Shown: piece by piece, positions 2,395-44,020 of the stretch
Layout of the letters: the number at the start of each line of letters is the position of its first letter
Position numbering within the stretch: the stretch's first letter is position 1
From: a virus
Lineage: Duplodnaviria; Heunggongvirae; Uroviricota; Caudoviricetes
Reading direction: 5' to 3' (one strand)
DNA: 45,879 bases
Virus record (IMG/VR): IMGVR_UViG_3300001687_000020
Position numbers and translations under genes: made by a program
Notes under the pieces: generated by a model
The model's database searches: none
What the model was told of the DNA's origin: nothing
What the model saw: the letters and a program-made list of their open reading frames with translations, nothing else

Positions 2395-2407
2395 TATTTA
2401 TTTGTTC
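2395..2407 (-). promoter_or_regulatory. Putative late promoter GAACA-AATAAA-TA for tail tube gene
   Basis: Plus strand tatttatttgttc; one of six such intergenic motifs upstream of minus-strand RBSs. Confidence 0.75.
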
Positions 2408-2418
2408 AATATTTCTAA

Positions 2419-2658
2419 TTATTCTATTTCTCTACCATTAGGTAGCATAGTAGGAGAAACTTTTTCACCACGATCTGACATTTGTTTTCTTCTACATAAA
2501 TCCCATCTCTTTTTACAATAAGCTTCTTGAATACTATGTCTTGCTTCTGGACTAGGGATATTTTCAAATAAGGGACATTTAGGAAGATTTTGGCATGGTC
2601 CCATTGGTTCTTTGGACACAGAGTCAACTGGAAAAATAGACTCCTTAGTTCTATTCAT
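2419..2658 (-). CDS. Small Cys-rich hypothetical protein (C-x5-CP...YC-x5-C)
   Basis: 79 aa; CQNLPKCPLF...AYCKKRWDLCRRK...PTMLPNG; overlaps upstream ORF by 8 nt. Confidence 0.75.
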   Translation of the reverse strand: MNRTKESIFPVDSVSKEPMGPCQNLPKCPLFENIPSPEARHSIQEAYCKKRWDLCRRKQMSDRGEKVSPTMLPNGREIE

Positions 2659-2872
2659 TTAAATGTCCCCAAGTTTCATAGTTTTCTATTTGCTCATGGA
2701 TAAGAGTAGGTTTAGATTTTTCTTGAAAATTAGAACATGCCTTTTGGTTATACGAAACCGGACTATAAATCGGTGTTCCTGCTTCATTGATGGTTGGAGG
2801 ATTTTTTCTACAACAATTATCCCAAAATACACATTCTCCACAAACTTTATCCATAAAATTTCGTTCGTACAT
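2651..2872 (-). CDS. Small putative Zn-binding phage protein (CxxC...CRxxPP...C)
   Basis: 73 aa; CGECVFW..CCRKNPP...ACSNF; RBS AAGGA upstream. Confidence 0.75.
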   Translation of the reverse strand: MYERNFMDKVCGECVFWDNCCRKNPPTINEAGTPIYSPVSYNQKACSNFQEKSKPTLIHEQIENYETWGHLNE

Positions 2873-2896
2873 AAAAATTCCTTCTTTCTTAAGAGG

Positions 2897-2950
2897 CCTT
2901 TCCCTTTCCCCCTCAAGAAACAGATTAAAGAGAGAGGGAAAGGGAAAAGG
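2897..2950 (-). other. Strong RNA hairpin immediately 3' of the sheath gene
   Basis: CCTTTCCCTTTCCCCCTC / GAGAGAGGGAAAGGGAAAAGG inverted repeat, about 18 bp; G-U wobble valid on the minus strand; no U-tail. Confidence 0.7.
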
Positions 2951-2962
2951 TTGGTGAACAAT

Positions 2963-4906
2963 TTATAAAATAAAGAAATTCAAATTAATCTTTTCAACTA
3001 ATTTCATTGGTTGAAGCTCAATATTGACATGGAACTGTTTGGTTTTAAGTTCATAGTCGGTTGCCCCAACTTCAACACCATAAGAATACAAACCTCTTCT
3101 TCGCTTAATGTCTTCTAAGAATAAAGTAATGTCTGAAGCAACTCTATCCCAAGTTTCAGCATCGTTTAACTCAAAAATAAAATATCTACAATATTGTTCC
3201 AATGCCTTTTTAACATAAAGGATCATTCTAACAACATTAAGGTCTTGTAAACTACTTGGTTTGGACTGGGAAGTTAGTTGACCCCAGAATACATAACCCT
3301 GAGCGAACTTAACAATTGGGTTAAGTTGCTTCAAATACATATCATCTCGGTCACTTAGAGTTGGGTTATATCGAAGTTCTTTAATTCCATCCAAAGTTCC
3401 TCCGGGGAATCCTACAAAACCTGCCCATACTTCTCTCACTGAATCATTTCTTGGTAATAAATAAGAAGCATGCCAAGTCGGACTAACCCACATATCCTGA
3501 CCTGTGAAGTTATCATAAACCTTATTAAAGTTGCAAAAGAGTGACATATAATAATTATTATATGTATGAGAATTTGTCCTATCCGTTAATTCGTTTGCAA
3601 CCGTGGAGTTATCACTATTATCAATTATTCCTATACAATCCCTTCTTGTGGTACATAGGGTATTAATAGCGGTTTTAACATCGGTGGGATATCCTGCGTC
3701 CCACACAACATTAAAGTAATAACTTTCAGTGTCTAAAACTGACTCTTCGGTGACTGAAGTCATAGGATTTGTCAATAACCCAGTGTATGCTTGAGCAAGA
3801 ATTTGGGTAGCAACTGTGGTATTTAAATTTCCTCCCACTACAAGAGTTCCAACTGAACCCTTAGAAAGTGGAGTTGCATCAGATAACGCAGTTGCCATAT
3901 TGACATAAGATTTTCTAACTTGATAAGTGATTTCCCCGCCTGAGTCAAAATTAGTAGTACTACCAATCCAACTTTGAGTTGCTCCAGTCAAGTTTTTGGA
4001 ACTAAAAACATTAATAGTTCCATTCGTCACACCGGAAGATGCTCCCAACCAACCCCAAAGTTCATTTCCTCGCTGATCCTTTGCTATTACTACATAATTA
4101 GCAGTTCCTGTCTCGGGGTTTGTTTGCCATTGACTAAAATCCTGCTTATTATCACTGATGGTGGCAGAGCCGGCTGTTTCGATTACATCAATATCACCTT
4201 GATTTTTGTCGTAAACTCGGGTACATAAATTGTAGCCAGCAGTTCCCTGCTCTGCTCGTAAAACTGAGGAATAGTTTTCTAAAATCTCATTAATGTAAAT
4301 TGAAGCACCGGCTAAGTCAACTGCAGTTGGGTCAAATGAGATTTCAAAACTTTCAATAATTTGGTCAGTCTCATCAGATTGTCTTTCATAAATATCCAAA
4401 ATGTAAACACCATAATACATTGGATTAGATTGCTGAGTCAACTTAACACTTATTCCATTATAATAATCCCCTCGACCAATAGGATATAAACAACAAATAG
4501 GATAAGTAGTTCCATCTTGAGCCATATTAGTTTCAAGAACTGAAAGACTTGTAGCAGAGGAAATATAACTAAAACTTAAAGTTGTAGTACTATCGCTTTC
4601 ATTCGCGTCAATCCTAATATTGGAATAAGTGGCGTTTGAGGGTAATGCTCTACAACAATAAAGTGATCCTGATTCACCCAAAAAGTTATAAGCAATATAT
4701 GGACCAAGACCATAGTTTTTGGTATAATCAGTTATATCTGGCTCGCCAAACTCAGAAATATAATCCGACCTAGAACTTTTCTTTACTAATTGGTTATCCC
4801 TACCTTTTACACTAAGGAATGAGATAAGTCCCGTAGTTGCCGGAACTGCCTGGACATATGTACTTAGGTCAATAATCTTAGTATATACTCCCGGACTTAT
4901 AGCCAT
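2963..4906 (-). CDS. Tail sheath protein
   Basis: 647 aa; N-terminal SPGVYTKIIDLS and C-terminal sheath domain (RRDCIGIID, LNPIVKF, WGQLT, LQDLNVVRM, FELND, IELQPMKLVEKINLNF). Confidence 0.95.
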   Translation of the reverse strand: MAISPGVYTKIIDLSTYVQAVPATTGLISFLSVKGRDNQLVKKSSRSDYISEFGEPDITDYTKNYGLGPYIAYNFLGESGSLYCCRALPSNATYSNIRIDANESDSTTTLSFSYISSATSLSVLETNMAQDGTTYPICCLYPIGRGDYYNGISVKLTQQSNPMYYGVYILDIYERQSDETDQIIESFEISFDPTAVDLAGASIYINEILENYSSVLRAEQGTAGYNLCTRVYDKNQGDIDVIETAGSATISDNKQDFSQWQTNPETGTANYVVIAKDQRGNELWGWLGASSGVTNGTINVFSSKNLTGATQSWIGSTTNFDSGGEITYQVRKSYVNMATALSDATPLSKGSVGTLVVGGNLNTTVATQILAQAYTGLLTNPMTSVTEESVLDTESYYFNVVWDAGYPTDVKTAINTLCTTRRDCIGIIDNSDNSTVANELTDRTNSHTYNNYYMSLFCNFNKVYDNFTGQDMWVSPTWHASYLLPRNDSVREVWAGFVGFPGGTLDGIKELRYNPTLSDRDDMYLKQLNPIVKFAQGYVFWGQLTSQSKPSSLQDLNVVRMILYVKKALEQYCRYFIFELNDAETWDRVASDITLFLEDIKRRRGLYSYGVEVGATDYELKTKQFHVNIELQPMKLVEKINLNFFIL

Positions 4907-5024
4907 ATCAAATTACCTCCAATTATCTAAATATCATGTCATTTCTCTAACTTTTTTCATGGTTCCAGTGTCCTTTTTCGAAACTTATCTATAACCTTTT
5001 AGTGTAAACTTTATCTATTTTTCT

Positions 5025-5537
5025 CTATTTCTTTTTCCTTCTTTTAAGAATACCCCTAAGTTTATAGAAAATATAAATCATTAATGCCATAATAGTCCAT
5101 TTTCTAATAGGCATAGGAGTATCTTCGGACTCTTTAACAAATAACTTGAGATATCCAAAGTCATCTTCATCAGGATTATAATGAAAGACGAAATCTTTTA
5201 TCATCTTTTTATACTTATCTTTTCCATACAATGAGATAGCTAAAGAGATAAATCCTGATTCGTTTCCTGTTAAGTCAGTGGAATTTTCAATTACTGTTTT
5301 CGTCTTATCATAAATCTTTAGAAGGTTAGCTTTATCAATACTTCGGTTTTGGGAAAATAAGATTTTCATTAATTCGGATGGGTCTTTATATTTGGTAAGT
5401 TCTTTTTCGTATTTCAATAATTCAGTGGGTTTAGTAATTACTTTTTCTATAAAAGATTTAGGATCTCTAACTAAAGGTCCTATTTCTTCATGGATAATAG
5501 TTCTAATTTCTTCTAAGCACTCTTGAAATATATCCAT
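5025..5537 (-). CDS. Hypothetical protein with C-terminal hydrophobic helix
   Basis: 170-aa ORF in operon orientation; ends WTIMALMIYIFYKLRGILKRRKKK. Confidence 0.7.
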   Translation of the reverse strand: MDIFQECLEEIRTIIHEEIGPLVRDPKSFIEKVITKPTELLKYEKELTKYKDPSELMKILFSQNRSIDKANLLKIYDKTKTVIENSTDLTGNESGFISLAISLYGKDKYKKMIKDFVFHYNPDEDDFGYLKLFVKESEDTPMPIRKWTIMALMIYIFYKLRGILKRRKKK

Positions 5538-5566
5538 GTATTTAAAATCCTTTTAATTATAATAAC

Positions 5567-6265
5567 TTACACGTAAATATACCATGTAAACACGAGACTT
5601 CTCAAAGAAGTCTTTTCAATGGTTGAAAAAGTTACTCTAGCAAACAAAGTGAAAATCCCACTTGCTCCACCCGCAGAACTAGCATTTATAAATAACCCCG
5701 CTTCATTCACATCATTATTTCCTGGGAAATTACATTCATCGTTTGCTATTGTGGTAGTTACCTTGATTATAAGATACCTATTATTGTTACTTGGATCTTG
5801 TTGATAAGTAACTGAGTCAAAAGCATGTTTAAACCAATAATCTGTTCCTCCCTTATTATGCCAATCAGCATAGATAGTTGAAGTTGAATCAGTTGAAATA
5901 GGAATTTCATCTGCTAACTTAGTATTACTATTTGAGGGTGGAGCAGGAGTTAATGGATCAACTGGACATCCTCCCTGACCTAGTCCGAACCAATAAATTG
6001 CTTCGTTGGCCGCCGAAGTTGTGTCTACATTATTAATATTAAAAATTCTTTCAGCAACCCACTCTCGACCTGCGTAAACTACTAAGTTATTAGTTTGCTC
6101 TACTAAAGTTTTATTCCCTTCGCTATCTACTGAGTGAATTTGGACCATATTTTGAGGTTTCTTAGATGGACCATTGGGAGTCCTAAAACTGCCAACTGAA
6201 TCACCTATACATTTACTGTAGTAATCGTTGACAGTTATTCTTATTTCTTCAACTTTATGTTCCAT
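5567..6265 (-). CDS. Baseplate/tail-collar-fibre-like protein
   Basis: 232 aa; NLVVYAGRE, FGLGQGG, NEAGLF, LFARVTFSTIEKT..LVFTWYI pattern of collar-fibre (DUF3751-like) N-terminal domains. Confidence 0.7.
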   Translation of the reverse strand: MEHKVEEIRITVNDYYSKCIGDSVGSFRTPNGPSKKPQNMVQIHSVDSEGNKTLVEQTNNLVVYAGREWVAERIFNINNVDTTSAANEAIYWFGLGQGGCPVDPLTPAPPSNSNTKLADEIPISTDSTSTIYADWHNKGGTDYWFKHAFDSVTYQQDPSNNNRYLIIKVTTTIANDECNFPGNNDVNEAGLFINASSAGGASGIFTLFARVTFSTIEKTSLRSLVFTWYIYV

Positions 6266-6282
6266 TCTCTATCTCCTTTGTA

Positions 6283-6558
6283 TTACTCAGTAAATATAAT
6301 ATAGTCATTCTGAGCGCATCCAGCAGCGGTGCATTTTAGAATTATAACGTCTGCGTCCATCTCTACGGCAGTTAAATCTATTTTATACCACCCATGACTA
6401 ATTTCGGTTGCTGGAGTATTAACACAATTAACAAATGCCCCACCATCTTGTGAAATTTGAACCGTTGCTACAACTCCAGTTTCTGGAGTATTGAAATCTG
6501 TAGCATCTACCATTTTTATAGGGAAATTACTAAATGCTACATTCTTTGTAAAAGGCAT
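6283..6558 (-). CDS. Small beta-sandwich protein (EIxxGWY...GCAQND family)
   Basis: 91 aa; QISQDGGAF, EISHGWYKIDL, GCAQNDY; paralogous to 7022-7363 and the C-terminus of 7381-8253; RBS GAGGAGG. Confidence 0.8.
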   Translation of the reverse strand: MPFTKNVAFSNFPIKMVDATDFNTPETGVVATVQISQDGGAFVNCVNTPATEISHGWYKIDLTAVEMDADVIILKCTAAGCAQNDYIIFTE

Positions 6559-6583
6559 CTTTAAACCTCCTCATTTTATAGTC

Positions 6584-6596
6584 CAATAATTTGTTC
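6584..6596 (-). promoter_or_regulatory. Putative late promoter GAACA-AATTAT-TG
   Basis: Plus strand caataatttgttc, upstream of the RBS of 6283-6558. Confidence 0.7.
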
Positions 6597-6607
6597 AGAT
6601 TTAAAAA

Positions 6608-7011
6608 AGGTAGATATTAGATAGGATTTTTACTAACTAACAAATAGTTTCCATGGTCGATCCTTGATCATTACATAAGAATGCCCGAGTGTTAGTAAGA
6701 ACTATATATTCTTCACCATTTGAAAGTTTACACCCAATCCTTACCACTGGGACAAAACATTCGTTTTCAACACCCTTAACTTTCTCTACCTCTTCATCAA
6801 TTACTATTAAATTAGCTTCATCTGACTCAGAAAAAGTTCCATCCTCTAACTTATAAGTACCATCTTTCACATTATAAAGAGTATCTCCAGTAACTAGCCT
6901 TTCTATATTATCAATAAACCACCAATCTCTAAACTGATTAATACCTTTGATTTTTAGTAACATGTGTTTTCTACCTTCCTTCCTATCTACCTAGCTATCT
7001 AATATCTACCT
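6608..7011. repeat. Perfect 17-bp inverted repeat (6608-6624 / 6995-7011) flanking the 6637-6963 gene
   Basis: aggtagatattagatag vs ctatctaatatctacct; on the minus strand the downstream arm ends in T6 (6603-6608). Confidence 0.95.
6637..6963 (-). CDS. Accessory hypothetical protein (FLCNDQGSTME C-terminal motif)
   Basis: 108 aa; C-terminal AFLCNDQGSTMETI resembles the YLxNDxGKTIE motif of small non-structural phage proteins. Confidence 0.8.
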   Translation of the reverse strand: MLLKIKGINQFRDWWFIDNIERLVTGDTLYNVKDGTYKLEDGTFSESDEANLIVIDEEVEKVKGVENECFVPVVRIGCKLSNGEEYIVLTNTRAFLCNDQGSTMETIC

Positions 7012-7021
7012 CACATATATT

Positions 7022-7363
7022 TTAGGGTGCTCGTAACTGAGCATCTATAAAAACATAGTCATTCTGAGCACATCCAGAAGCAGTAAATTTAAGTATTAAA
7101 ACACTATTAATAAGATCATCTATAGCGATTAAAATTTTATACCAACCATTTCCGATTTCTCTAACCCTAGATTCAGGAACTTGGAAAGCACTTCCGTTTT
7201 TCGATATTTGACAAGAAACACTCTTTCCTGGAGCGGGAGAGGATATATCAGTACTTAAAACCATTTTAAATACTATTTCAACTTTTGGAGTTTCTGTTCC
7301 TATGGGAATTCTATCTCTTTCCCTTTTCCTCCAATTAATCATTTTTGTGCCAATTATAGCCAA
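7022..7363 (-). CDS. Small beta-sandwich protein (EIxxGWY...GCAQND family)
   Basis: 113 aa; QISKNGSAF, EIGNGWYKIL, GCAQNDY. Confidence 0.75.
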   Translation of the reverse strand: MAIIGTKMINWRKRERDRIPIGTETPKVEIVFKMVLSTDISSPAPGKSVSCQISKNGSAFQVPESRVREIGNGWYKILIAIDDLINSVLILKFTASGCAQNDYVFIDAQLRAP

Positions 7364-7380
7364 TGTAATATCCCTCCCCT

Positions 7381-8253: not shown

Positions 8254-8291
8254 ATTTCTTTTTCCTATCTCTAATTGACTTTATCATCCTT

Positions 8292-9155: not shown

Positions 9156-9160
9156 AGTCT

Positions 9161-9754
9161 CTATTTCCTTAGCCTATGAGTATAAACATTTTCTTCGTTG
9201 AAAGAATACTTTATCTCATAATCAAATCTATTTGGATTCAAAACAAACCTTGGAATTATAAAACTACCTAAATGATAAAGTAAACATTTAGTAGTATCTA
9301 AATATCTTATTTTATCATCAACATATATCATGACCCAAGCATGCTTATCAGCTAATACCACTCTTGCCTCAAACTCATACTTTCTCAATATAGAGCAAAG
9401 TAGTATTGCTTGGTCTTCGCAGTCTCCGGTTCCTTTCTTTAAAGTTACTACTGGGTCTTGCCAAATGTCATCTACTTTTTGACCTTCTTCATAGTCTTTT
9501 TTATAACCAATATTTAAAAAAACTGACAAAGCAATCCAATATGGATGTTTAATGAATACATCATATTTAATCTTTTTAAATATTAAAGTAGTCCATCTTA
9601 CAGTTTGAATTTTTCCTATTCCTACTTCTGCTTTACAATATTTTTTAGTTATAAGTTTTCTATTTTCTATATCTTCTCTATCAATCTCTTTCCAATATAG
9701 AGGATTAAATATATTTATGCTCTTAAAAAATGTTTTTACTTTAGTTAGATCCAT
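9161..9754 (-). CDS. Transglutaminase-like cysteine protease
   Basis: 197 aa; GTGDCEDQAILLCSIL, HAWV, YLDTT give a Cys-His-Asp triad. Confidence 0.85.
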   Translation of the reverse strand: MDLTKVKTFFKSINIFNPLYWKEIDREDIENRKLITKKYCKAEVGIGKIQTVRWTTLIFKKIKYDVFIKHPYWIALSVFLNIGYKKDYEEGQKVDDIWQDPVVTLKKGTGDCEDQAILLCSILRKYEFEARVVLADKHAWVMIYVDDKIRYLDTTKCLLYHLGSFIIPRFVLNPNRFDYEIKYSFNEENVYTHRLRK

Positions 9755-9768
9755 TTTTTTAATCCTCC

Positions 9769-9781
9769 TATTTTTTTGTTC
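9769..9781 (-). promoter_or_regulatory. Putative late promoter GAACA-AAAAAA-TA
   Basis: Plus strand tatttttttgttc; predicted +1 A is directly followed by the GGAGG RBS of 9161-9754. Confidence 0.75.
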
Positions 9782-9799
9782 CGAATTGTAACTAAATAT

Positions 9800-9844
9800 A
9801 AAAAATAAGGTAGGCTTGAACTATTGTATGCTCAAACCTACCTT
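9800..9844 (-). terminator. Intrinsic terminator
   Basis: Minus strand AAGGTAGGTTTGAG-CATACAATAG-TTCAAGCCTACCTT-A-TTTTTT; 14-bp stem whose two wobbles are valid only on the minus strand. Confidence 0.85.
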
Positions 9845-10503: not shown

Positions 10504-10986
10504 TTACTCTGCTATCTCATTAAATATCCAACCCGCTAAAAGGGCAGTAGTAATTCCCAATGTAAAACTAAATCCTGTTTTGTATGAGTTCCACTTTAAT
10601 GCAGTTAAATACTTCTTTTGACTCTTATCTAACTCCTCTCTGTATAAAGAGATGTCTTCTTTCAGCAAATCATTATTACTGATATATAGTTTGATCCTTT
10701 CATCTTTAGATTCTAAAAGTTCTTGGTTAAATATATGAACCTTATTAAGGTTTTCTAATTGCTTGGTTTTTAATACATTAACTTCACGTAAAGTCTCTAT
10801 TTCTTCCAATACTTTTTTCCACTCTTCCACTTCTAATCCTATTAGTTCTTTATTACATGTCTGTCCAGGTTCAAGAAATACTGGATTAAGATTTAATTCT
10901 TCTCCTCTAGCACAAAAAGCAAGGAATAAGATAAGGAATATTACTATGAGTCCTACTATAAGTAAATCCTTTCTAAATTCACTCAT
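10504..10986 (-). CDS. Signal-peptide, coiled-coil, C-terminal TM protein (spanin-like)
   Basis: 160 aa; hydrophobic N-terminus, coiled coil, C-terminal FTLGITTALLAGWIF; abuts 10986-11342. Confidence 0.55.
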   Translation of the reverse strand: MSEFRKDLLIVGLIVIFLILFLAFCARGEELNLNPVFLEPGQTCNKELIGLEVEEWKKVLEEIETLREVNVLKTKQLENLNKVHIFNQELLESKDERIKLYISNNDLLKEDISLYREELDKSQKKYLTALKWNSYKTGFSFTLGITTALLAGWIFNEIAE

Positions 10987-11342
10987 TATAAACTCCTTAT
11001 TTTATCTATTACATCAGATGCTTTAGAAGTATTTATCTTAACTTTTTCTTTAACTGAAGCAATTTCTTTATCTAATTTCTTATTCTCCTGGATTAAAGTA
11101 GATATTTCATTCCCTTTCCAATCATCCATTTTTTCTAATTCTTTAATCTTATCAGAGTTTTGTTTCCTTTTCTCCTCTTTCACTTTCAGTTTTTCGTCTA
11201 GTTCTTTCTTCTGTAAATTTAATTTGGTTTTCTCTAGAAGGTAATGACCCCTTCCTTTCAATATTATTATTCCTAGTATCGCCAGGGCTATTGTCCCTAG
11301 AAGTATAAAGAATGCCTTTAGGTTCCTGAATATGGATTTCAT
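10986..11342 (-). CDS. N-terminal TM plus coiled-coil protein (i-spanin/Rz-like)
   Basis: 118 aa; AFFILLGTIALAILGIIIL then Lys/Glu-rich coiled coil. Confidence 0.6.
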   Translation of the reverse strand: MKSIFRNLKAFFILLGTIALAILGIIILKGRGHYLLEKTKLNLQKKELDEKLKVKEEKRKQNSDKIKELEKMDDWKGNEISTLIQENKKLDKEIASVKEKVKINTSKASDVIDKIRSL

Positions 11343-11523
11343 TTTCTTGTCTCCTCTTTCTTTCTTCTAACTCCTTATTAGTAACTGGAAACTCTGGAAC
11401 ATGACCAAAAGCGTTAACTAATTCCTGTCTTCTTTGAGATTCTGAGTATTCTTTTATTCCCCTTTCTGGTAATTCGGAGTATGCCCTATTCGTCCATTCT
11501 TTCGGCGTTTTCGGTGTTGCCAT
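11152..11523 (-). CDS. Hypothetical protein overlapping the Rz-like gene
   Basis: 123 aa; RBS GAGG; fills gap 11343-11485 and overlaps the next gene by 191 nt in another frame. Confidence 0.5.
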   Translation of the reverse strand: MATPKTPKEWTNRAYSELPERGIKEYSESQRRQELVNAFGHVPEFPVTNKELEERKRRQENEIHIQEPKGILYTSRDNSPGDTRNNNIERKGSLPSRENQIKFTEERTRRKTESERGEKETKL

Positions 11524-11791
11524 TTTTCTTTTCCTCTATTAAACTAGCTATCTGAAACACACTTCTTGAAAATAAAATAACTAAAATACCAGAAGTTAAA
11601 ATCGTAGTCCACTGGGTTCCGGTAATTTTTCCAGCGACTAAAAGTTTAGTGGAAATATAACTAATAGCAGCCAAAACCCAAAGTTTTACTGAGATTAATG
11701 TTCTAAGTAATTTAGCTAACCATAAAGCATAAAATTCTTTACTAAAAGCATTATGCTCACAATTTATCTCCATCGTCTTCTTCGCTCCCAA
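11486..11791 (-). CDS. Holin-like two-TM protein
   Basis: Hydrophobic LISVKLWVLAAISYI and WTTILTSGILVILF segments with charged C-terminus. Confidence 0.55.
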   Translation of the reverse strand: MGAKKTMEINCEHNAFSKEFYALWLAKLLRTLISVKLWVLAAISYISTKLLVAGKITGTQWTTILTSGILVILFSRSVFQIASLIEEKKNGNTENAERMDE

Positions 11792-12224
11792 ATAACTTAA
11801 ATAGTCCTACAAACAAAGTTCCTTTCTCAAGGAATGGTTCATAGTCCAATACTATTAGCCTTACAAATTCATAGTCTTCGTGATTAAAAACTAAGCAATG
11901 TTGCCCATTACGAATCTCTGTTTTTAATCCATTAATAACTTTATCAGCTTGAATGATATCTTTATACCCTCGATATCCTCTATAAGTCGATAAAGCCATT
12001 TTAATTAAAGACGAAGTAGTATGAGGTTCTTCTTCTCCTGACTTAGAGTAAACTCTAGTAGTAACTCTTGGATTAACTATTATGTCAGGAATATAATATA
12101 CTCTTTCTTCATTAGAAATTCTTTTCTTATTTGGTTTAATAACTTTCGGTTGAATAACTTTGTCTTGCTTTGGATCCATTAAGTGTGTTTCTTGTTCTTC
12201 GATAGTTTCATTAAACTTATCCAT
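11757..12224 (-). CDS. Hypothetical protein
   Basis: 155 aa; RBS GAGG; preceded by late-promoter motif. Confidence 0.75.
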   Translation of the reverse strand: MDKFNETIEEQETHLMDPKQDKVIQPKVIKPNKKRISNEERVYYIPDIIVNPRVTTRVYSKSGEEEPHTTSSLIKMALSTYRGYRGYKDIIQADKVINGLKTEIRNGQHCLVFNHEDYEFVRLIVLDYEPFLEKGTLFVGLFKLFGSEEDDGDKL

Positions 12225-12243
12225 TTCATTGACCTCTTTCTTA

Positions 12244-12256
12244 TAATAGTTTGTTC
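12244..12256 (-). promoter_or_regulatory. Putative late promoter GAACA-AACTAT-TA
   Basis: Plus strand taatagtttgttc, upstream of the RBS of 11757-12224. Confidence 0.75.
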
Positions 12257-12299
12257 TGTCAAAAAATTCTACTCGTCACTCTTCTTTCCAACTATTAGG

Positions 12300-12579
12300 T
12301 TCTCCCTTTGTAGGGGAAAAATACATAGATTTTAATAAGTCTAAGAAAAATCTTAATCTACTTTAAAAGAGACTTTAACTAAAACAGATTTTTCTCAGAA
12401 CCGTTCTAGAAGTTCATAGTAAATTTATTTCATATCAGTATAGGGCATTTCTTATAGAAGAATATCACATAGAACTGTTCTGAAAACTTAATCAGTCTTA
12501 AAATATTACTTTTGATAAGTTAAAGATTTTCAGTTCGGTTCTGAACATTTTATAAGAAATTGCCCCTACAAAGGGAGAA
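12300..12579. other. Non-coding palindromic element, candidate ncRNA / MITE-like element / origin
   Basis: 17-bp perfect terminal IR (12300-12316 / 12563-12579), internal AGAAC-n-GTTCT palindromes, long internal hairpin 12441-12568; no ORF of 60 aa or more. Confidence 0.6.
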
Positions 12580-12592
12580 AAAAATTTAATCC

Positions 12593-29103: not shown

Positions 29104-29334
29104 TTATTGTTTTTTCAGACTATTCATTAGTTCTTTAAATCGAGTATTCACTAAGGGTCTGGATTGTTCGTCGACTAATGTCACTTTTCCATCTAATATT
29201 AAAACCATAGTTTGGTATTTATCAGCTTCTCGAAGAAAGGAAATAAGTTGAATCTTGGCGGGATTGGATAATTCATTAGACTCATTTATTGCTTTAACAG
29301 CAAAAAGTTTTAGTATTTTAGTTTTATTATCCAT
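29104..29334 (-). CDS. Small stand-alone EATD-like domain protein
   Basis: Start ATG 29334 after GGGGGGA; LISFLREADKYQTMVLILDGKV aligns to KKFIMSEATDFEVIHLLFEGKL of 529-1617. Confidence 0.75.
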   Translation of the reverse strand: MDNKTKILKLFAVKAINESNELSNPAKIQLISFLREADKYQTMVLILDGKVTLVDEQSRPLVNTRFKELMNSLKKQ

Positions 29335-29374
29335 AGAATTCCCCCCACACAAAAAAGAATGTTAGTTGTAATTC

Positions 29375-29387
29375 TAAATATTTGTTC
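29375..29387 (-). promoter_or_regulatory. Putative late promoter GAACA-AATATT-TA heading the minus-strand block
   Basis: Plus strand taaatatttgttc in the divergent intergenic region. Confidence 0.75.
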
Positions 29388-29437
29388 AAATGTAAAATGG
29401 ATTTTCCACCAGATACAAATTACTTTTTATACCATTT

Positions 29438-29456
29438 AACTTATATATATAAATTA
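29438..29456 (+). promoter_or_regulatory. Putative early promoter motif AACTTATATATATAAATTA
   Basis: Near-identical motif at the other divergence point (44046-44062); both precede plus-strand blocks. Confidence 0.5.
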
Positions 29457-29546
29457 CTGGAATATTGTATAGTGGTTTGTCATACTTTTATTTAGATTTT
29501 TATTTTTATTTCTTTTTGGTACAAAAAAATAATATGGAGGAAAGAA

Positions 29547-33875: not shown

Positions 33876-34241
33876 ATGATGCCTGCAATATCAGCAAAGT
33901 TTAGTATTGATAGCGGAGAAATGATGGAAATAGTTTATAGACTATATTTATCTTATATCAAAAATGAAGGAAATTTTGGTTCTATTAATATAGTCCTCTC
34001 GTTAGAATATAACCATTTTATGATGAAAACACCTTTTCCTCTTAGTATAGCTACCACAGAACTAGGAGGAAAAAGAGTTTTGTATATCGCTTTTAGTAAT
34101 CTTGATTTTATTTATTCCCGGTCTCAGATGGAAGGTTTCTTTTATCAACAATTAGAATACTTAGGAATTCCTGGGTATGTAATTCTCGAAACTATGGATA
34201 AAGAAAGGAAAATTATATACAATGTTAGAACTCACTATTGA
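33876..34241 (+). CDS. YxxYL paralogue family member
   Basis: 121 aa; MEIVYRLYLSYIK; QLEYLGIP. Confidence 0.75.
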   Translation: MMPAISAKFSIDSGEMMEIVYRLYLSYIKNEGNFGSINIVLSLEYNHFMMKTPFPLSIATTELGGKRVLYIAFSNLDFIYSRSQMEGFFYQQLEYLGIPGYVILETMDKERKIIYNVRTHY

Positions 34242-36721: not shown

Positions 36722-36745
36722 TATTTAATATTGGAGGTTTTAGAA

Positions 36746-37441: not shown

Positions 37442-37457
37442 TCTGAGGAGGAAGGAG

Positions 37458-38377: not shown

Positions 38378-38378
38378 C

Positions 38379-38783
38379 ATGAGTCAAAGGATACATCACA
38401 TTCTTGGTGTTAATTTTAGAACAGAAGAATTGAAAACCAATAAAGAATTTCTACATTGTATGTATTTACTTTCTTTAATATCTGAGTTTGTTTATGATAA
38501 TAGATGTAGTTATCACTTTTACTCATTTAAAAAATTTGTAGACTCAGACTATTTCACTCATATAGCTATGTATAGATTGGGTTATCTTACTAATCTGGAG
38601 TGTATAACATATCATAATGCTGGAACTATATTTAAACTTCATTTAGGTCTTAGATTTCCACAAGATATGGAATTATTTGAAACTAAATATAACTATATGC
38701 AAAGGATTATATTAAATTTAGACAAAATTGGGATTCATACTAATGTAAGTCATTTATGTTTAAGATCTAAAATTATCGACTAA
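38379..38783 (+). CDS. YxxYL paralogue family member
   Basis: 134 aa; LHCMYLLSLI; NLDKIGIH. Confidence 0.75.
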   Translation: MSQRIHHILGVNFRTEELKTNKEFLHCMYLLSLISEFVYDNRCSYHFYSFKKFVDSDYFTHIAMYRLGYLTNLECITYHNAGTIFKLHLGLRFPQDMELFETKYNYMQRIILNLDKIGIHTNVSHLCLRSKIID

Positions 38784-38795
38784 GGGGGTGGAAAA

Positions 38796-39185
38796 ATTCT
38801 CAATTATAATAGTTTTTGTATAATAGGTTTTACAATTGATAAAGATTCTTTTATCAAAAAATTTCCTGATATTTGTAAATTAGTTTATAAATTGTATTTA
38901 TCTTATAATAAGGATGGGTTGTTAGTTAAAGGATTCGAGGGATTTTTAACTTCAGAACTTTTTTTCACGTATATCTCTCTATTTCTACTAAAAAATGGTT
39001 TATATGGGACTCAGGAGACAAGTCCAAATTCCTGTTATTTTTATTTAGGAAAAAGTATTTATACTATGTATGAAACTGAAACTTTACATGATTTCAAACT
39101 AAGAGTATACAATAAGTTAAGGAAGACAGGATTTGAAATAACCTTTAAAGAAATGTCTGTACATACAGGCTCAGGAGACAGGTAA
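38796..39185 (+). CDS. YxxYL paralogue with uncertain start
   Basis: Frame open from 38784; family motif KLVYKLYLSYNK begins upstream of the track start (38892); candidate ATT start at 38796. Confidence 0.65.
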   Translation: MLNYNSFCIIGFTIDKDSFIKKFPDICKLVYKLYLSYNKDGLLVKGFEGFLTSELFFTYISLFLLKNGLYGTQETSPNSCYFYLGKSIYTMYETETLHDFKLRVYNKLRKTGFEITFKEMSVHTGSGDR

Positions 39186-39186
39186 A

Positions 39187-39666
39187 ATGACAGAAAAAGA
39201 TAACAAAAATAATCCGGGGGACATCAAAGAAAGTATTAAAAAGTTATTAGATGCTGTTATTCCAACTAATGAATTGATAGACAAAATCCAGAATGTACTA
39301 AATGGTATCCCCCAAATACTTGATGATTCAGAAATCAGAAAAATAGTAGTGACAACTTTATTAATGGGAGATGCTTTTCAATTTGAGGAATTTAAAGACC
39401 TGCTAAAGGTTTATGGAATTGAACCTCCCACAGATGACTTGGGAAAACCTCACACTGAAATTCTAAAAGATATTAGTCTTAAAATTATAAATAGCTTTTA
39501 CAAGATGGACAATGATAAGCTTCCCCATTTTTTTAAACTGTTATTAAAGTGTTTTGGAAAAGGATCATATTCAGTTGATGATTTTAAATGTATGTCTCAT
39601 CCTATAAAACTAGAATCGGACGTAGATATGGATTTTTTAAAAGACCTTAAAGGACCAATGCATTAA
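39187..39666 (+). CDS. Hypothetical protein
   Basis: 159-aa ORF, RBS GGAG/AGGT. Confidence 0.7.
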   Translation: MTEKDNKNNPGDIKESIKKLLDAVIPTNELIDKIQNVLNGIPQILDDSEIRKIVVTTLLMGDAFQFEEFKDLLKVYGIEPPTDDLGKPHTEILKDISLKIINSFYKMDNDKLPHFFKLLLKCFGKGSYSVDDFKCMSHPIKLESDVDMDFLKDLKGPMH

Positions 39667-39682
39667 TAATTAAAAGGGGGTT

Positions 39683-40153
39683 TTGAGAATGTTTAGTTTT
39701 TTAGTTATCTCTTTTTTAGTATGTGTTGTGGTAAGTTTTTTAGGAAGAGTTGTCAAGAATGATTTAATGATACTTATCGGTATAGTAGGAATGATTTTGA
39801 TAGTAATTTTTGGTTTTTTATATTTCCCTCACTTTTTTAGGACAGAGTATAACATTCACGTTACTAGGTTAGAAGGTTCTAAATTTTCAAGAATGGTTTT
39901 AGGAACCGAGATTGAGTCAGGAAAAGGAATGTCATTTAAAAATAGGGATAGTGCACTTGAATGGAAATGGAACTCTGCTGATATTCAAGCAGAGTTAGAG
40001 GAAGGAAAAGACTTTACTATAAAAGTTTATGGTATTCGTTTACCTTTTTGGTCAGTAAACAAAAATATAATATCTGTCGAGCCATATGTTAGAAAACCTG
40101 ATCCGGAGAAAATAAGTTTTTTACCTCTATTCTTTAATCTAAACTTTTCTTAA
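39683..40153 (+). CDS. Membrane-anchored phage protein (DUF1523-like)
   Basis: Two TM helices then FKNRDSALEWKWNSADIQAELEEGKDFTIKVYGIRLPFWS..NII motif. Confidence 0.7.
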   Translation: MRMFSFLVISFLVCVVVSFLGRVVKNDLMILIGIVGMILIVIFGFLYFPHFFRTEYNIHVTRLEGSKFSRMVLGTEIESGKGMSFKNRDSALEWKWNSADIQAELEEGKDFTIKVYGIRLPFWSVNKNIISVEPYVRKPDPEKISFLPLFFNLNFS

Positions 40154-40166
40154 CTGGAGAAACAAT

Positions 40167-40604
40167 ATGACTTGGATTTTTAAAGTTTTTGATGTCTATA
40201 TAATTCTTTTTTCTATGATTATCCTTCTAGTTATGTATTTATTCTTTCCCTTGGGTATAGCCCTACTGATAATATTTATAGCTTTGGGTTGTGTGTTGTG
40301 GGGTTATTGGACTAATTCTAAAGAATTGAGAATTAGTGGGAAAGTGATGGACAAGAAGTCATATTATTCTGAAAGTTATAGACATTTTTGTGGTCTATTT
40401 TATAGAGTTTCAATTTTCTCACCTGTTTATGGGAAAGTGATAATTCAAGAAATTTCTCCTGGCTATCCAGAAAGACTTTTTGGATCTACTAGTAAAATTT
40501 TAGATTCATTAGAAATAGGTCTCAATTATGATTTAGTTTTTAAACACTGGGAGACAATGTTTGGTATTTATAATTTGTTGGTTGAAGTCAAAAAAATGCC
40601 ATAG
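40167..40604 (+). CDS. Two-TM protein with OB-fold-like soluble domain
   Basis: 145 aa; ISGKVMDKKSY...DSLEIGLNYDLVF pattern parallels the previous ORF. Confidence 0.65.
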   Translation: MTWIFKVFDVYIILFSMIILLVMYLFFPLGIALLIIFIALGCVLWGYWTNSKELRISGKVMDKKSYYSESYRHFCGLFYRVSIFSPVYGKVIIQEISPGYPERLFGSTSKILDSLEIGLNYDLVFKHWETMFGIYNLLVEVKKMP

Positions 40605-40615
40605 GGGAGGGGTTA

Positions 40616-41047
40616 ATGCGAAATTTAGTTAAGTCATATATAATTTTCAGTTTGGACAATATTAGAGAATTTATTTATGGCCTATTTATGTTGTTTTCTA
40701 TCTCAGCAGGTATAATACTTTTTATTTGGTTTTTACTTTTAATCGGGGTTGAGTCCCCGGAGCATCTTAAACTTTTTTCTAGCTTATATTTTATAGTTCC
40801 AACAATTATATCTATTATATTGATAGCAATTTACTATATCATCCCTAGTACTAATTCATTTATCAAAATACATTTAATCCGAGCAATGTTGGATAATGAA
40901 TTAGAAAAAGGAATTTCGGAATTAGCTAAATCAGGAAAGGATATCTCTGGGCATTTTAGTAATGTTATAACTAGAGTTTTTAAAGATATTGACAAAGGTT
41001 TGGAAAGTTTAGAAAAGAAGTTTAAACTGAATGACGAATCTTCATAA
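40616..41047 (+). CDS. Two-TM membrane protein
   Basis: 143 aa; two hydrophobic helices and a coiled C-terminus; RBS GGAGG. Confidence 0.7.
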   Translation: MRNLVKSYIIFSLDNIREFIYGLFMLFSISAGIILFIWFLLLIGVESPEHLKLFSSLYFIVPTIISIILIAIYYIIPSTNSFIKIHLIRAMLDNELEKGISELAKSGKDISGHFSNVITRVFKDIDKGLESLEKKFKLNDESS

Positions 41048-41058
41048 GGAACTATATA

Positions 41059-41265
41059 ATGAACAAATCTATACCTATAATCCATGGGATTTCTATATTT
41101 GGAATGGTTATAGCACTTCTTGGATTGAATTGGTTAAATCTTTCTACTGTGAAGCAACTTAATGAAAGGCAAAAGCAACTTAAGAAATTTTTCAATTCGT
41201 TTCTTGCTTTAGTTGGAATTGTAAGTATTATAGTATTTCTGATAACTTCTTTTATTAGGAGATAG
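41059..41265 (+). CDS. Small two-TM protein
   Basis: 68 aa; same TM-loop-TM layout as 41272-41475. Confidence 0.7.
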   Translation: MNKSIPIIHGISIFGMVIALLGLNWLNLSTVKQLNERQKQLKKFFNSFLALVGIVSIIVFLITSFIRR

Positions 41266-41271
41266 ATCAAA

Positions 41272-41475
41272 ATGAATATTTCACCAATGCAGGGAAGTGG
41301 TTTATTATTTATTCTTATATGTTTCTTTTTACTTCATGTAATAAATACTGCTACTCAAACTAGATATTTGACACCTAAATTGTTGAAAATTAAAACAATA
41401 ACTAATTATGTTTTACTTATCTTATCAGGAATTTGCTTATTATCTTTTACTATTGACTTAATAATGAGGATGTAG
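41272..41475 (+). CDS. Small two-TM protein
   Basis: 67 aa; RBS AGGAG. Confidence 0.7.
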   Translation: MNISPMQGSGLLFILICFFLLHVINTATQTRYLTPKLLKIKTITNYVLLILSGICLLSFTIDLIMRM

Positions 41476-41479
41476 AAGC

Positions 41480-41920
41480 ATGAAGTATTTTAGCGGGAGT
41501 TTAGCTTTTTTACTATTTATGTATATTGGAACATTATTACTGTATCGTTTTAGACGAAAAACCTTTTTACGATATATGATAGGATTTCTCGGTATAGTAA
41601 TAGTCAGTATGTCTTTGATTATATTTTTCAATTCTAAAATGAACATTAGAGTTTCTACATTTTGTGTACTCTCTATTAAACCAGGAAAAATAGCCGCTAT
41701 GGATCTCAATACTAAGGAATTAGTAATTTTGGGAAATAGGAGGAATCCTTTTAGACTTGTTAGTTACGATGAAGTTCAAGAAGATATTAAATATGGTTGT
41801 ATTTATGTAATAGCTCATTTTAGATTTCCCCTTCCATTCCTTCCTGATAATATTGTTTATTTTGAAGAGTTCACTTTAGATGATGAAGAATCAAAAATTC
41901 CAGACTTCAGAAGTATTTAG
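41480..41920 (+). CDS. Two-TM protein with beta-rich domain
   Basis: 146 aa; AAMDLNTKELV parallels GARDIKTGKLI in the next ORF. Confidence 0.7.
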   Translation: MKYFSGSLAFLLFMYIGTLLLYRFRRKTFLRYMIGFLGIVIVSMSLIIFFNSKMNIRVSTFCVLSIKPGKIAAMDLNTKELVILGNRRNPFRLVSYDEVQEDIKYGCIYVIAHFRFPLPFLPDNIVYFEEFTLDDEESKIPDFRSI

Positions 41921-41931
41921 GAGGTATTTAA

Positions 41932-42261
41932 TTGATTTTTTTCTTTTCTTTAGTCTTAGTAGGTTTTATTTCTATTTTAGCAAGTAAGTATTTCACGAGA
42001 AAGAATTTAAAAGAATTAGAAACTCCGTGGAGAATCCGGAGTGTTTATTTTTCAGCCATAGTAGTTGAAGGTAAAGTAAAAGTTGGGGCTAGGGATATAA
42101 AAACGGGAAAATTAATTGATTTTTATAAAGAGGTGGGAGATAAAATATGTAATAGTATTTCCAGGAATATGGTTCCTGGATTTTATTTATGTATTTATAA
42201 AAAAGGTGAGATGACAGTGTGTACGTACAAGGGAGATGATTATGTTCTTAAATTTCTTTAG
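41932..42261 (+). CDS. TM-anchored beta-rich protein
   Basis: 109 aa; TTG start after GGAGG. Confidence 0.7.
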   Translation: MIFFFSLVLVGFISILASKYFTRKNLKELETPWRIRSVYFSAIVVEGKVKVGARDIKTGKLIDFYKEVGDKICNSISRNMVPGFYLCIYKKGEMTVCTYKGDDYVLKFL

Positions 42262-42580
42262 TATCTTAATAAGTTCACTTTTAGCTATACTTATAGTTAA
42301 AGTGCATTTAAAAAGTCTTTATAAGTCAATACATATAGATGTCCGCTTAGTAAAAATCATTAGCGTTGAAGAAAATAATATGTATTGTTTGGAGCAACCA
42401 AGCGGACTAGTTTATAAGTATAATAAAGAATGTTTTCTTTCTCCTACAAATTTTAAGACTTTTCATGAAGGTAGTGAATATCTATTGACTTGTTGTGGAA
42501 AGGGACCCACCATAGCAAAAAACTTTGTGATGCCTCCCAATCCCACTAGTAATAATGAGTCAGAGAAAACTCTCCATTAA
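42236..42580 (+). CDS. TM-anchored beta-rich protein
   Basis: 114 aa; N-terminal TM; FKTFHEGSEYLL motif. Confidence 0.7.
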   Translation: MIMFLNFFSILISSLLAILIVKVHLKSLYKSIHIDVRLVKIISVEENNMYCLEQPSGLVYKYNKECFLSPTNFKTFHEGSEYLLTCCGKGPTIAKNFVMPPNPTSNNESEKTLH

Positions 42581-42589
42581 AATACAGAA

Positions 42590-42675
42590 TGAGTCGGAAT
42601 AAGTGTTATCTTAGTTTTGTCCTGGGATCATGGGGAGGACGAGATTGAGTATACCTTATTCCGACTTATTTTTTT
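42590..42675 (+). terminator. Very long hairpin plus U7, terminator of the plus block
   Basis: Arms 42590-42623 / 42636-42668, about 32 bp with several G-U pairs valid on plus; followed by a T run; lies between convergent genes. Confidence 0.8.
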
Positions 42676-43486
42676 AGCAAAAATTTTGGATAAATTTCTT
42701 AACTCTATTATGAACTTCTTGACATGTGGGAGAGATAGTATTAATTTCTAATATTTTCCAACCTATACTTCTCAAATGTTTTTTTCTAGACTCTGGGTTT
42801 ATAGCATATATATCATTATGCCAGAAAACTTTTGAGAACTCTATATCTATTTGTCTAGAAGGAATTGTCATATCGGTTACATATTGAAAATTAATATCTC
42901 CACCCAAAGCCTTGTCTACTATAGTTTTATCACATTCGATATCAGGATAATACTTTTTTAAATATAAATAGATTTCTTCTTTAGTATCATATTGGATAGG
43001 AGAAATATTATAGTTAGTATCTTTATGTTTGGATAACTCAATACTTTCCATCTCTTCCATAAATTCTTTTCGAACTTGCTCTCTGATTTCTTCTATAGTT
43101 AAAGTTCCACCTATAGGTTGAGTCATGTGAATATCAACAGATGATTCATTTGATGAAGCTATGACTGACCCTCTAGATGGAGCAATTCCTAATTCTTCCC
43201 GAATATATTCTTTTGCTTTATCAGTAATAAAATCTCTAACTCTAGCAGATGCAGAAGTGACTTTTCCTTCTTTATTAGTGACTATCACATGAACAAATTC
43301 TTCGCTTGCTCTTAGTTCTTCAATTTTTAATTTACTAATAGGAAAACCAGGATACTTATTATGATATTCAGCTAATGACATATTATGAAATTTTTTCATA
43401 TGGTTATCATTCAAAATTCTAAATGCTTGACCACATTCCTGACATATAACGAGTCCGTCTTCATCATACTTAGCATACATATTCAA
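42674..43486 (-). CDS. Zn-finger plus Vsr/DUF559-like endonuclease domain protein (homing-endonuclease-like)
   Basis: N-terminal CQECG..F..L...H....H; C-terminal DMTIPSRQIDIEF..VFWH...LRSIGWKILEI. Confidence 0.65.
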   Translation of the reverse strand: MNMYAKYDEDGLVICQECGQAFRILNDNHMKKFHNMSLAEYHNKYPGFPISKLKIEELRASEEFVHVIVTNKEGKVTSASARVRDFITDKAKEYIREELGIAPSRGSVIASSNESSVDIHMTQPIGGTLTIEEIREQVRKEFMEEMESIELSKHKDTNYNISPIQYDTKEEIYLYLKKYYPDIECDKTIVDKALGGDINFQYVTDMTIPSRQIDIEFSKVFWHNDIYAINPESRKKHLRSIGWKILEINTISPTCQEVHNRVKKFIQNFC

Positions 43487-43492
43487 AATCTC

Positions 43493-43993
43493 CTAAAATA
43501 GTTGTTTGTTTACAGATACGTTGATTCTTCCTGGGAGATTTTTCCACCAATCTTCCCATTCTTTTTGCTTCTTACAATTATAGTATAGTGGTGCTGCTAC
43601 ACATATTCTTGGTCTTCCTTCCATTCCAATATCGTATCCTGATTTAGTATTTTTAAAAGAATTCAATTTCGCAACTATTTTCTCAACGAAAGGTTCCAAT
43701 TTTGTGTCAACTCTAAATATTATAAAAGTTGGCCAATCTAATGATATCCCTCCTTCCGGTCCATGACCTTCACATGATGATCGAATTTCGACATTTTTTA
43801 TAGAATTAAGTTTCTCTAACCAATTGTTATCTAAATGCTCATCGACATATAAACCTTTCCATAACTTCTCTTTCGTTCCTGGGGCCCTTCCCATTCGTTG
43901 ACCAGGATAAGGTTTACCATGAATAACTTCCCAGGCTAAAGTAGGAGCAGGTTTTTTGCCTTTTCCAAAATGTCGTAATTTTTCTATCGCCAT
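43493..43993 (-). CDS. Hypothetical protein with SSCEGH motif (TYW3-like fold possible)
   Basis: 166 aa; VD..L...L..LN.I..VEIRSSCEGH; RBS AAGGAGG. Confidence 0.6.
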   Translation of the reverse strand: MAIEKLRHFGKGKKPAPTLAWEVIHGKPYPGQRMGRAPGTKEKLWKGLYVDEHLDNNWLEKLNSIKNVEIRSSCEGHGPEGGISLDWPTFIIFRVDTKLEPFVEKIVAKLNSFKNTKSGYDIGMEGRPRICVAAPLYYNCKKQKEWEDWWKNLPGRINVSVNKQLF

Positions 43994-44007
43994 TATATTC
44001 CTCCTTA

Positions 44008-44020
44008 TAGTAATATGTTC
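44008..44020 (-). promoter_or_regulatory. Putative late promoter GAACA-TATTAC-TA
   Basis: Plus strand tagtaatatgttc, just upstream of the AAGGAGG RBS of 43493-43993. Confidence 0.75.

Follow-up and report, generated by a model that had tools for sequence, protein, structure and literature searches.

Late promoters of phage AR9 have the consensus AACA-(6N)-TA/G, with transcription starting at the last purine (PMC5312081), and those of AR9 and PBS1 are read by a non-virion multisubunit RNA polymerase (RNAP) with gp226 (PMC5312081, PMC5449584, PMC9209446). Multisubunit RNAPs of phages occur in two forms. Those of phiKZ/AR9-like jumbo phages are split and highly diverged, and their promoters have been mapped; those of the uncultured mReC phages (multisubunit-RNAP-encoding Caudovirales) are unsplit and cell-like. 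Promoters are not analysed, or even mentioned by that word, in the paper on the mReC phages (Weinheimer and Aylward 2020, PMC7481178), and no promoter analysis for these phages was found in the literature searched. The subject of this report is a short GAACA box in IMG/VR virus record IMGVR_UViG_3300001687_000020, a 45,879-nucleotide (nt) stretch of Caudoviricetes DNA that is called the window below. A first-pass annotation had likened six copies of the box to the AR9 late consensus and had proposed from them a related polymerase and possibly uracil-substituted DNA. In this purely computational analysis the observation was confirmed, and the six sites are probably a lineage-specific core promoter element, most likely read by the phage's own multisubunit RNAP and not by host sigma-70 holoenzyme. 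The proposal as a whole is partly supported: a phage-specific promoter with an AR9-like layout is upheld, whereas uracil DNA and an AR9-type enzyme are not.

GAACA boxes at gene heads in the window

A pattern search of the window, read against its map of open reading frames (ORFs), placed exact copies of GAACA-N6-TR (R, purine) at positions 2395, 6584, 9769, 12244, 29375, and 44008, all on the minus strand and all between called ORFs. Each of the six is followed by a Shine-Dalgarno sequence and then by a minus-strand ATG, 27 to 55 nt downstream of the G of GAACA. Everything that had been described for the sites at first inspection (intergenic position, minus strand, exact 6-nt spacing, and location upstream of a ribosome-binding site [RBS]) was thus reproduced.

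Box 1 (2395..2407, minus strand, GAACA-N6-TA) lies 55 nt before the ATG of a tail-tube-like gene (1624-2352, minus strand), which has tail-tube and virion PHROG matches and heads the tube/baseplate operon. Box 2 (6584..6596, minus strand, GAACA-N6-TG) lies 38 nt before the ATG of a gene for a 91-amino-acid (91-aa) protein (6283-6558), which is followed by genes for 232-aa and 170-aa proteins, upstream of the sheath gene. Box 3 (9769..9781, minus strand, GAACA-N6-TA) is 27 nt from the ATG of a transglutaminase-like gene (9161-9754), its final purine directly abutting the Shine-Dalgarno sequence; 25 nt upstream of it stands an intrinsic-terminator-like hairpin (9807..9844, minus strand) of 15 pairs and a T-run, the top-ranked terminator-like site, and the two together look like a terminator-then-promoter junction. 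Box 4 (12244..12256, minus strand, GAACA-N6-TA) lies 32 nt before the ATG of gene 11757-12224, which heads a six-gene operon. Box 5 (29375..29387, minus strand, GAACA-N6-TA), in the divergent intergenic region 29353-29546, heads a minus-strand operon with a DHH phosphoesterase and a 1383-aa protein; its distance to the first ORF (29104-29352) is 53 nt by the gene caller's start and about 36 nt by the ORF start at 29352. Box 6 (44008..44020, minus strand, GAACA-N6-TA) lies 27 nt before the ATG of gene 43493-43993, and the next gene encodes a 270-aa protein with a ROS/MucR-type zinc finger. Separately, a 17-nt inverted repeat flanks the entire gene for a 108-aa protein (6637-6963; repeat and gene together, 6608-7011), its downstream arm and a T-run lying just before box 2.

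Enrichment of the box in this phage and its relatives

The left end of the window overlaps IMG/VR contig 3300027917_000053 (56,248 bp; the left contig) with 99.9% identity over 3.65 kb, which adds 52.6 kb beyond the window. At the right end, a 41-mer had an exact copy in a JGI metagenome contig and none in the viral contig collection, and a 4.3-kb bridging contig, which overlaps its neighbour at either end by about 780 nt at 100% identity, leads to JGI contig Ga0209536_100000450 (66,649 bp; the right contig), of which 31 kb of sequence was covered. The phage genome is at least about 168 kb long. A nucleotide search with 20 kb of the window found no match in the phage collection. Related contigs of 143, 186, 255, and 269 kb, 46 to 82% complete according to CheckV, served as relatives; the tail sheath of the 143-kb contig is 49% identical to that of this phage, and the capsid of the 255-kb contig (25% G+C) is 64% identical.

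In the 2.9 kb of sense intergenic DNA of the window, five GAACA-N6-TR matches were counted against 0.42 expected, a number reached in none of 400 Markov-1 simulations, and no antisense match was found. The window count is five or six, the sixth site being dropped solely by the filtering out of a small ORF call. An earlier estimate of well under one chance hit in the small intergenic space agrees with this expectation of about 0.4. On the right contig, three exact matches stood against 0.42 expected (1 of 400 simulations). For the shorter word GAACA(A/T)A, the sense intergenic DNA of the window and of the right contig had five matches each, against 0.75 and 0.73 expected, respectively (0 of 400 simulations for the right contig), with zero and one antisense. 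The 143-kb relative had 13 copies of GAACA(A/T)A against 3.1 expected, again unmatched in 400 runs; plain AACA-N6-TR was not enriched there (9 against 8.7). Matches to sigma-70-type promoters were not enriched (67 against 81 expected).

Furthermore, k-mers were enumerated blindly in sense upstream intergenic DNA, after gene calling in the 143-kb relative and in 98 kb of this phage, and without use of the earlier motif. In this phage, GAACAAA (six copies against 0.7 expected) was the top word after RBS words. In the 143-kb relative, TAGAACA was found nine times against 0.8 expected and GAACAAA eight times against 1.35, and in the 255-kb relative, TTAGAACA (24 against 0.5) and AGAACAAA (26 against 0.95) ranked above the RBS words at that k-mer length. 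By these counts the GAACA box is the strongest non-RBS upstream motif in both relatives. From the whole-window figures one might suspect that a short A-rich word has clustered by chance in AT-rich intergenic sequence, since neither GAACA-N6-TR (21 matches against 13.6 expected) nor plain AACA-N6-TR (66 against 75) is enriched there, nor is GAACA(A/T)A (16 against 19.7), and the motif had been chosen after the sequence was seen. Against this, the observed intergenic counts were unreached in 400 to 500 simulations on four independent sequence sets, and blind enumeration recovered the box in two other genomes, with orthologous positions conserved. The simulations and the blind k-mer discovery effectively refute the chance explanation, and the probability left to it is negligible.

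Conservation and form of the motif

In total, nine exact GAACA-N6-TR copies lie in sense intergenic DNA of this phage, the six in the window and three on the right contig, where they precede the major capsid gene, an 82-aa/portal operon, and the gene for a 357-aa protein. Boxes without T-purine at N6 precede the gene for a family-B DNA polymerase fused to a uracil-DNA glycosylase (UDG) domain, a gene for a 305-aa polymerase fragment, and a gene for a 183-aa protein (the last on the left contig), and a variant with N5 spacing precedes the 412-aa/terminase operon on the left contig. Six gene heads with a box are common to this phage and the 255-kb relative (tube, 232-aa, MucR-like, 1383-aa homologue, 412-aa, and family-B polymerase), and three are common to this phage and the 143-kb relative. 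In both of these relatives, a box accompanies the orthologue of the box 1 gene and stands immediately upstream of the orthologue of the 232-aa gene that follows box 2, and a relative's homologues of the 1383-aa protein (box 5) and of the zinc-finger protein (box 6) have one as well. Box-bearing orthologues are only 30 to 50% identical at the protein level, and the intergenic DNA is otherwise unalignable. Among three other relatives with intergenic DNA before the capsid gene, all three have a terminator hairpin followed by a GAACA box there, and the box was seen in short related contigs too. In a side observation, the family-B DNA polymerase of this phage is split by three opposite-strand genes into the 775-aa UDG-fused part and the 305-aa part (right contig pieces L040:1926-4253 and L040:6187-7104); both parts have their own GAACA box, and the 255-kb relative has a single gene for a 1085-aa protein.

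At 30 sites in the 255-kb relative, the box is preceded by (C/T)TTA, with the directly preceding A present in 29; GAACA is invariant and is followed by AAA and then by an A/T-rich stretch. A purine occupies the eighth base after the box at all 30 sites (28 A and 2 G), the adjacent positions being A in only 16 or 17. The clade form is TTA-GAACA-(A/T)A plus a purine 8 nt after the box, and this purine is the final R of the pattern first noted in the window and the counterpart of +1 in AR9.

As in AR9 late promoters, AACA would occupy positions -11 to -8 and the purine +1, equally far apart in both, with an A/T-rich spacer between them and no -35 element. In addition, the sites lie 25 to 85 nt before the start codons of structural and replication genes in phages with multisubunit RNAPs of their own, and a separate, highly conserved AT-rich, promoter-like class with a near-identical core accompanies them (see below). 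In contrast, the G before AACA is invariant here and present at only 3 of 17 AR9 sites (from 40 kb of the AR9 genome), the relatives have an additional TTA, the T at -1 is poorly conserved in phages other than this one, and site density is several-fold lower. The match to the AR9 late consensus therefore stands for AACA, the spacing, and the purine position; it does not extend to the T, which the relatives keep poorly, or to the invariant G, which is not part of the AR9 motif. The true motif is a GAACA box plus a downstream purine, which overlaps the AR9 consensus without being identical to it.

Geometry of the box

Distances from box to ATG range from 21 to about 140 nt, an RBS always intervenes, and five or more boxes lie just 25 to 27 nt from the ATG. 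Because many boxes leave only 21 to 27 nt before the ATG, part of which is the RBS, the box has to fall within about 12 nt of the transcript start, in the manner of a -10-type element; box 3, whose 27-nt distance from the ATG also includes an RBS, cannot for this reason be a -35 element. Promoters of extracytoplasmic function (ECF) sigma factors have the word GAAC in common with the box, there in the -35 element as opposed to the short distance from the ATG seen here. A -35/ECF-sigma reading of GAACA was excluded by this geometry, and no conserved element is present 16 to 17 nt downstream.

A 13-nt inverted repeat flanks a 368-nt stretch of the window with no gene in it (12225-12592, minus strand), and this stretch contains three AGAAC-N1-3-GTTCT palindromes. 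The same palindrome occurs on the right contig (piece L039:4593-4620), where it stands 25 nt before the box that precedes the gene for the 357-aa protein. The palindrome has its AGAAC half-site in common with the promoter box and may be a regulator site.

These palindromes near boxes, together with a ROS/MucR-type zinc-finger protein encoded in a GAACA-headed operon, are what speaks for a quite different role of the box, not as a core promoter but as the binding site of a phage transcription factor, be it an activator or a repressor, or as an RNA-level signal in the 5' leader that acts in processing or stability. Such a role is quite unlikely, since the box is a single asymmetric copy, strictly oriented to the gene and at a fixed spacing to a conserved purine, and stands at operon heads, often right after intrinsic terminators. 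A translational element is argued against by the variable distance between box and RBS, the range to the ATG being that given above.

Phage RNA polymerases and the search for a specificity factor

About 45 to 51 kb left of the window, the left contig carries a single ORF for a 914-aa beta' subunit with Rpb1 domains 1 to 5 and an intact NADFDGD motif and, directly downstream, a single ORF for a 1008-aa beta subunit with Rpb2 domains 3, 6, and 7. The unsplit subunits are detectable with cellular profiles (Pfam Rpb2_6, E value of 3.5e-50; Rpb1_2, E value of 2.6e-35). Split beta and beta' subunits, which the first-pass annotation had suggested looking for, were not what was found: both genes are intact here and unsplit in the relatives. 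The best true-phage matches of beta' are in Vibrio phage Va2, Rhizobium phages RHph_Y65 and TM30, Cobetia phage Carin-5, and Yersinia phage YerA41, at 26 to 28% identity over >80% of the protein. Against bacterial RpoC, beta' scores about 300 bits, compared with 74 to 88 bits against AR9 gp270, to which it is 30 to 34% identical over 170 to 260 aa only.

The virion and replication modules are T4-like, with a gp23-type capsid, a T4-type portal, an S77 prohead protease, a gp25-like baseplate protein, and a family-B polymerase; the 483-aa major capsid protein, which carries PF07068 (gp23-type), is encoded on the right contig that was joined to the window, as are the portal and the protease. With its unsplit polymerase, gp23-type capsid, T4-type portal, and S77 protease, the phage fits mReC, to which it would belong on these gene contents. 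Unsplit beta and beta', the gp23-type capsid, the T4-like virion module, and the large genome are all features of the mReC phages as described (PMC7481178). Compared with that description and with similar cultured phages, the relatives here differ in having two RNAP sets per genome, and the late intergenic regions of YerA41 differ in having no box.

The 143-, 186-, 255-, and 269-kb relatives have two beta' genes each, one for a protein of 900 to 920 aa, the type found in this phage, and the other for a protein of 780 to 1015 aa, which sits beside a beta gene for about 1370 aa. In the 255-kb relative, the second set (piece L065:1-4563, minus strand) forms an operon encoding a 142-aa protein, a 783-aa beta', 295-aa and 230-aa proteins, and a 1371-aa beta with an N-terminal extension of roughly 600 aa. 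This operon is headed by a GAACA box, as would be expected of a late-made, possibly virion-packaged enzyme. None of the 142-, 295-, and 230-aa proteins matches a Pfam family, and they could be additional subunits.

Searches for a promoter-recognition factor covered 133 kb of this phage and the 143- and 255-kb relatives, all incomplete genomes. With AR9 gp226 as the query, phmmer --max and tblastn gave nothing better than an E value of 0.06, in a family too divergent for sequence search, and T4 gp55 (phmmer and tblastn) had no relative in these sequences. A Sigma70_r2 domain was found in none of six related contigs, and the 56-kb and 143-kb contigs, both of them fragments, had no Sigma70_r2, UDG, DNA_pol_A, or ThyX match. 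Genes beside the polymerase operon, checked for sigma-like or helix-turn-helix domains, encode FolE2, a VWA protein, a ThiF-like protein, and proteins without assignment. As candidates for hidden polymerases, the two giant proteins of the window (1462 and 1383 aa) were rejected, since a DxDxD motif is absent and neither Pfam nor PHROGs gave an informative match; they are probably fibre or structural proteins. The earlier expectation of a phage-encoded RNAP or sigma-like factor was therefore borne out in part, by an unsplit beta/beta' pair, but not as a relative of the split AR9/phiKZ type, and no relative of sigma-70, gp55, or gp226 was found in the sequences searched.

T4 late promoters (TATAAATA, read with gp55, gp33, and the gp45 clamp) resemble the boxes in being -10-only and in preceding virion genes, and several sites here have a TAAATA-like stretch after the box, like the T4 late motif. 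A mechanism of that style, in which host core RNAP would use a small, diverged gp55-like sigma factor, perhaps with gp33-like and clamp cofactors, while the phage RNAPs serve other gene classes, would agree with the T4-like virion and replication modules and with the minimal sigma factors and gp33 reported in gp23-type jumbo phages (PMC7824862). Nevertheless, the invariant part of the motif is GAACA, not TATAAATA; the gp55 and Sigma70_r2 searches were negative; and these phages carry two polymerases of their own, whereas T4-type phages are without any. A T4-style mechanism is on balance unlikely.

Thymine versus uracil DNA

The possibility of uracil-substituted DNA, raised earlier from the AR9 likeness, is opposed by two genes of the same genome. 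The right contig encodes ThyX (Pfam E value of 1e-41), and the 775-aa family-B polymerase fragment on the same contig has an N-terminal UDG-superfamily domain (E value of 9e-16). ThyX is also encoded in three of the four large relatives. A replisome-borne uracil glycosylase is carried by phages with thymine or modified-thymine DNA (PMC13697223) and would be difficult to square with deoxyuridine DNA. Uracil DNA in this phage is thus unlikely on its gene content, and with these two genes present, recognition of the box would not need deoxyuridine. As a separate observation, a FolE2 gene lies two genes downstream of the polymerase operon (left contig piece L020:7962-8822), and genes for a radical-SAM protein and for a 458-aa unannotated protein are found on the right contig (pieces L040:7208-7864 and 10754-12130); the three point to a candidate 7-deazaguanine DNA modification.

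In its full form, the AR9 model would have a gp226-like subunit reading the template strand of a deoxyuridine-substituted genome, with deoxyuridine required at -11/-10. Besides the sequence and spacing that match the AR9 late consensus, it can draw on a second motif that is like the AR9 early promoter (a 10-nt core, with TGA at nearly the same spacing), on the local similarity of beta' to AR9 gp270, and on the full-length tail sheath, whose best matches are in the jumbo phages phiR1-37, BpSp, and LPJP1, although deoxyuridine is documented only for phiR1-37 among them (PMC5312081). The subunits here are nevertheless unsplit and closer to cellular and mReC-type enzymes, the gp226 search was without a match, and ThyX and the UDG domain of the DNA polymerase are encoded in the same genome. 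The full model is consequently very improbable.

Proposed function and points against it

The favoured reading, a core promoter element for the phage's own RNAP, would have the following form. The element would serve middle and late genes and would consist of (TTA)GAACA(A/T)A, a stretch rich in A and T, and a purine at the eighth position after the box. As a -10-type element, it would place G at -12 and AACA at -11 to -8, with the start at or near the +8 purine. By analogy to phiKZ and AR9, the reader would be a non-virion enzyme made of the 914-aa beta' and the 1008-aa beta, and the second polymerase set may be made late and perhaps packaged in the virion. Promoter function, start position, and reading polymerase are all inferred here from the sequence.

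Several observations weigh against this interpretation. The left 52.6 kb have no exact match, only the N5 variant and one box without T-purine at N6, and site density in this phage, about 1 per 10 kb, is far below that of AR9, which with 17 sites in 40 kb is about four times denser. The T before the purine is weak: the 255-kb relative has it at 13 of 30 sites, the 143-kb relative at 5 or 6 of 13 to 14 (the counts vary with the gene filter), and this phage at 9 of 13, including 3 of the 7 sites outside the original sample. The box precedes DNA polymerase genes too, so that "late" is too narrow a label, and in YerA41, a distant cultured phage, it was absent from the late intergenic regions. Furthermore, no candidate for a promoter-specificity factor emerged from the searches, and the AGAAC-half-site palindromes near boxes leave room for a DNA-binding regulator.

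A second, AT-rich promoter-like motif

Nearly all copies of the second motif, TATATATATTAAT-N3-TGA, lie between genes (29 of 32 in the 255-kb relative and 9 of 10 each in the 143-kb relative and this phage), typically 30 to 110 nt before small genes. The window has two matches against 0.10 expected, both on the plus strand. One, a TATATATATTAAT variant (29441..29454, plus strand), stands back-to-back with box 5, 93 nt before 29547, where the first gene of a block of about 45 small ORFs begins. The other, an exact copy of the clade consensus (44049..44062, plus strand), stands back-to-back with box 6, 28 nt apart from it and upstream of plus-strand genes from 44268. Compared with annotated AR9 early promoters, the motif has the 10-nt core in common, plus a TGA that is one base closer. 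The motif is a candidate early promoter that a packaged phage polymerase might use; alternatively, host sigma-A might read it, as a TCTGAA word about 18 nt upstream would allow. The idea that it forms the upstream half of a composite promoter, 26 to 30 nt before GAACA, was rejected; in the 255-kb relative it faces the opposite way, toward divergent small genes.

Other features of the window

According to the ORF map and profile matches, a myovirus structural module occupies the minus strand from position 1 to 29.3 kb and includes the tail sheath gene (2963-4906, minus strand), the tail-tube-like gene of box 1, endolysin and peptidase genes, and the genes for the two giant proteins. The plus-strand block of about 45 small ORFs is tightly packed and extends from 29.5 to 42.6 kb. 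A 27-nt plus-strand motif occurs inside this block in two copies (33931-33957 and 38881-38907; 0 expected by chance), the second of which occupies the sole sizeable intergenic gap of the block. Near the right end of the window, a 68-nt repeat of 81% identity (44520-44587 and 45522-45589, plus strand) spans the starts of two adjacent plus-strand genes and indicates recently duplicated small paralogues. Near the left end, 68 nt are missing at 351/352 relative to the overlapping IMG/VR contig (its positions 3299-3366); the gap, whether a deletion in this strain or an artefact of assembly, cuts a gene for a 410-aa protein, intact in four other assemblies, to a 51-aa ORF (345-500) and a shifted frame (2-430). 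Scans of the window for tRNAs and Rfam families found nothing.

Implications

In the boldest reading, both AR9 promoter classes, the early one with its ATATATATTA core followed by TGA and the late one with AACA and a purine 8 nt downstream, would have counterparts in a T4-like clade with unsplit, cell-like RNAPs and thymine DNA; this reading is tentative, with a fairly small chance of being right. If it reflects common descent, the promoter-recognition apparatus of phage multisubunit RNAPs would predate the split of these lineages, the clade would hide a gp226/gp68-type factor that reads T and not deoxyuridine, and the mReC RNAPs would be linked to those of phiKZ and AR9 and given their first promoters.

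For the mReC phages, the GAACA box is a clade-wide candidate promoter, accompanied by a probable second class, and the boxes predict which RNAP set is made late. The genes of this phage suggest that an AR9-like promoter grammar can operate apparently without the need for uracil DNA. The motif can be used to annotate transcription units in these widespread large environmental phages and to guide the in vitro reconstitution of their RNAPs.

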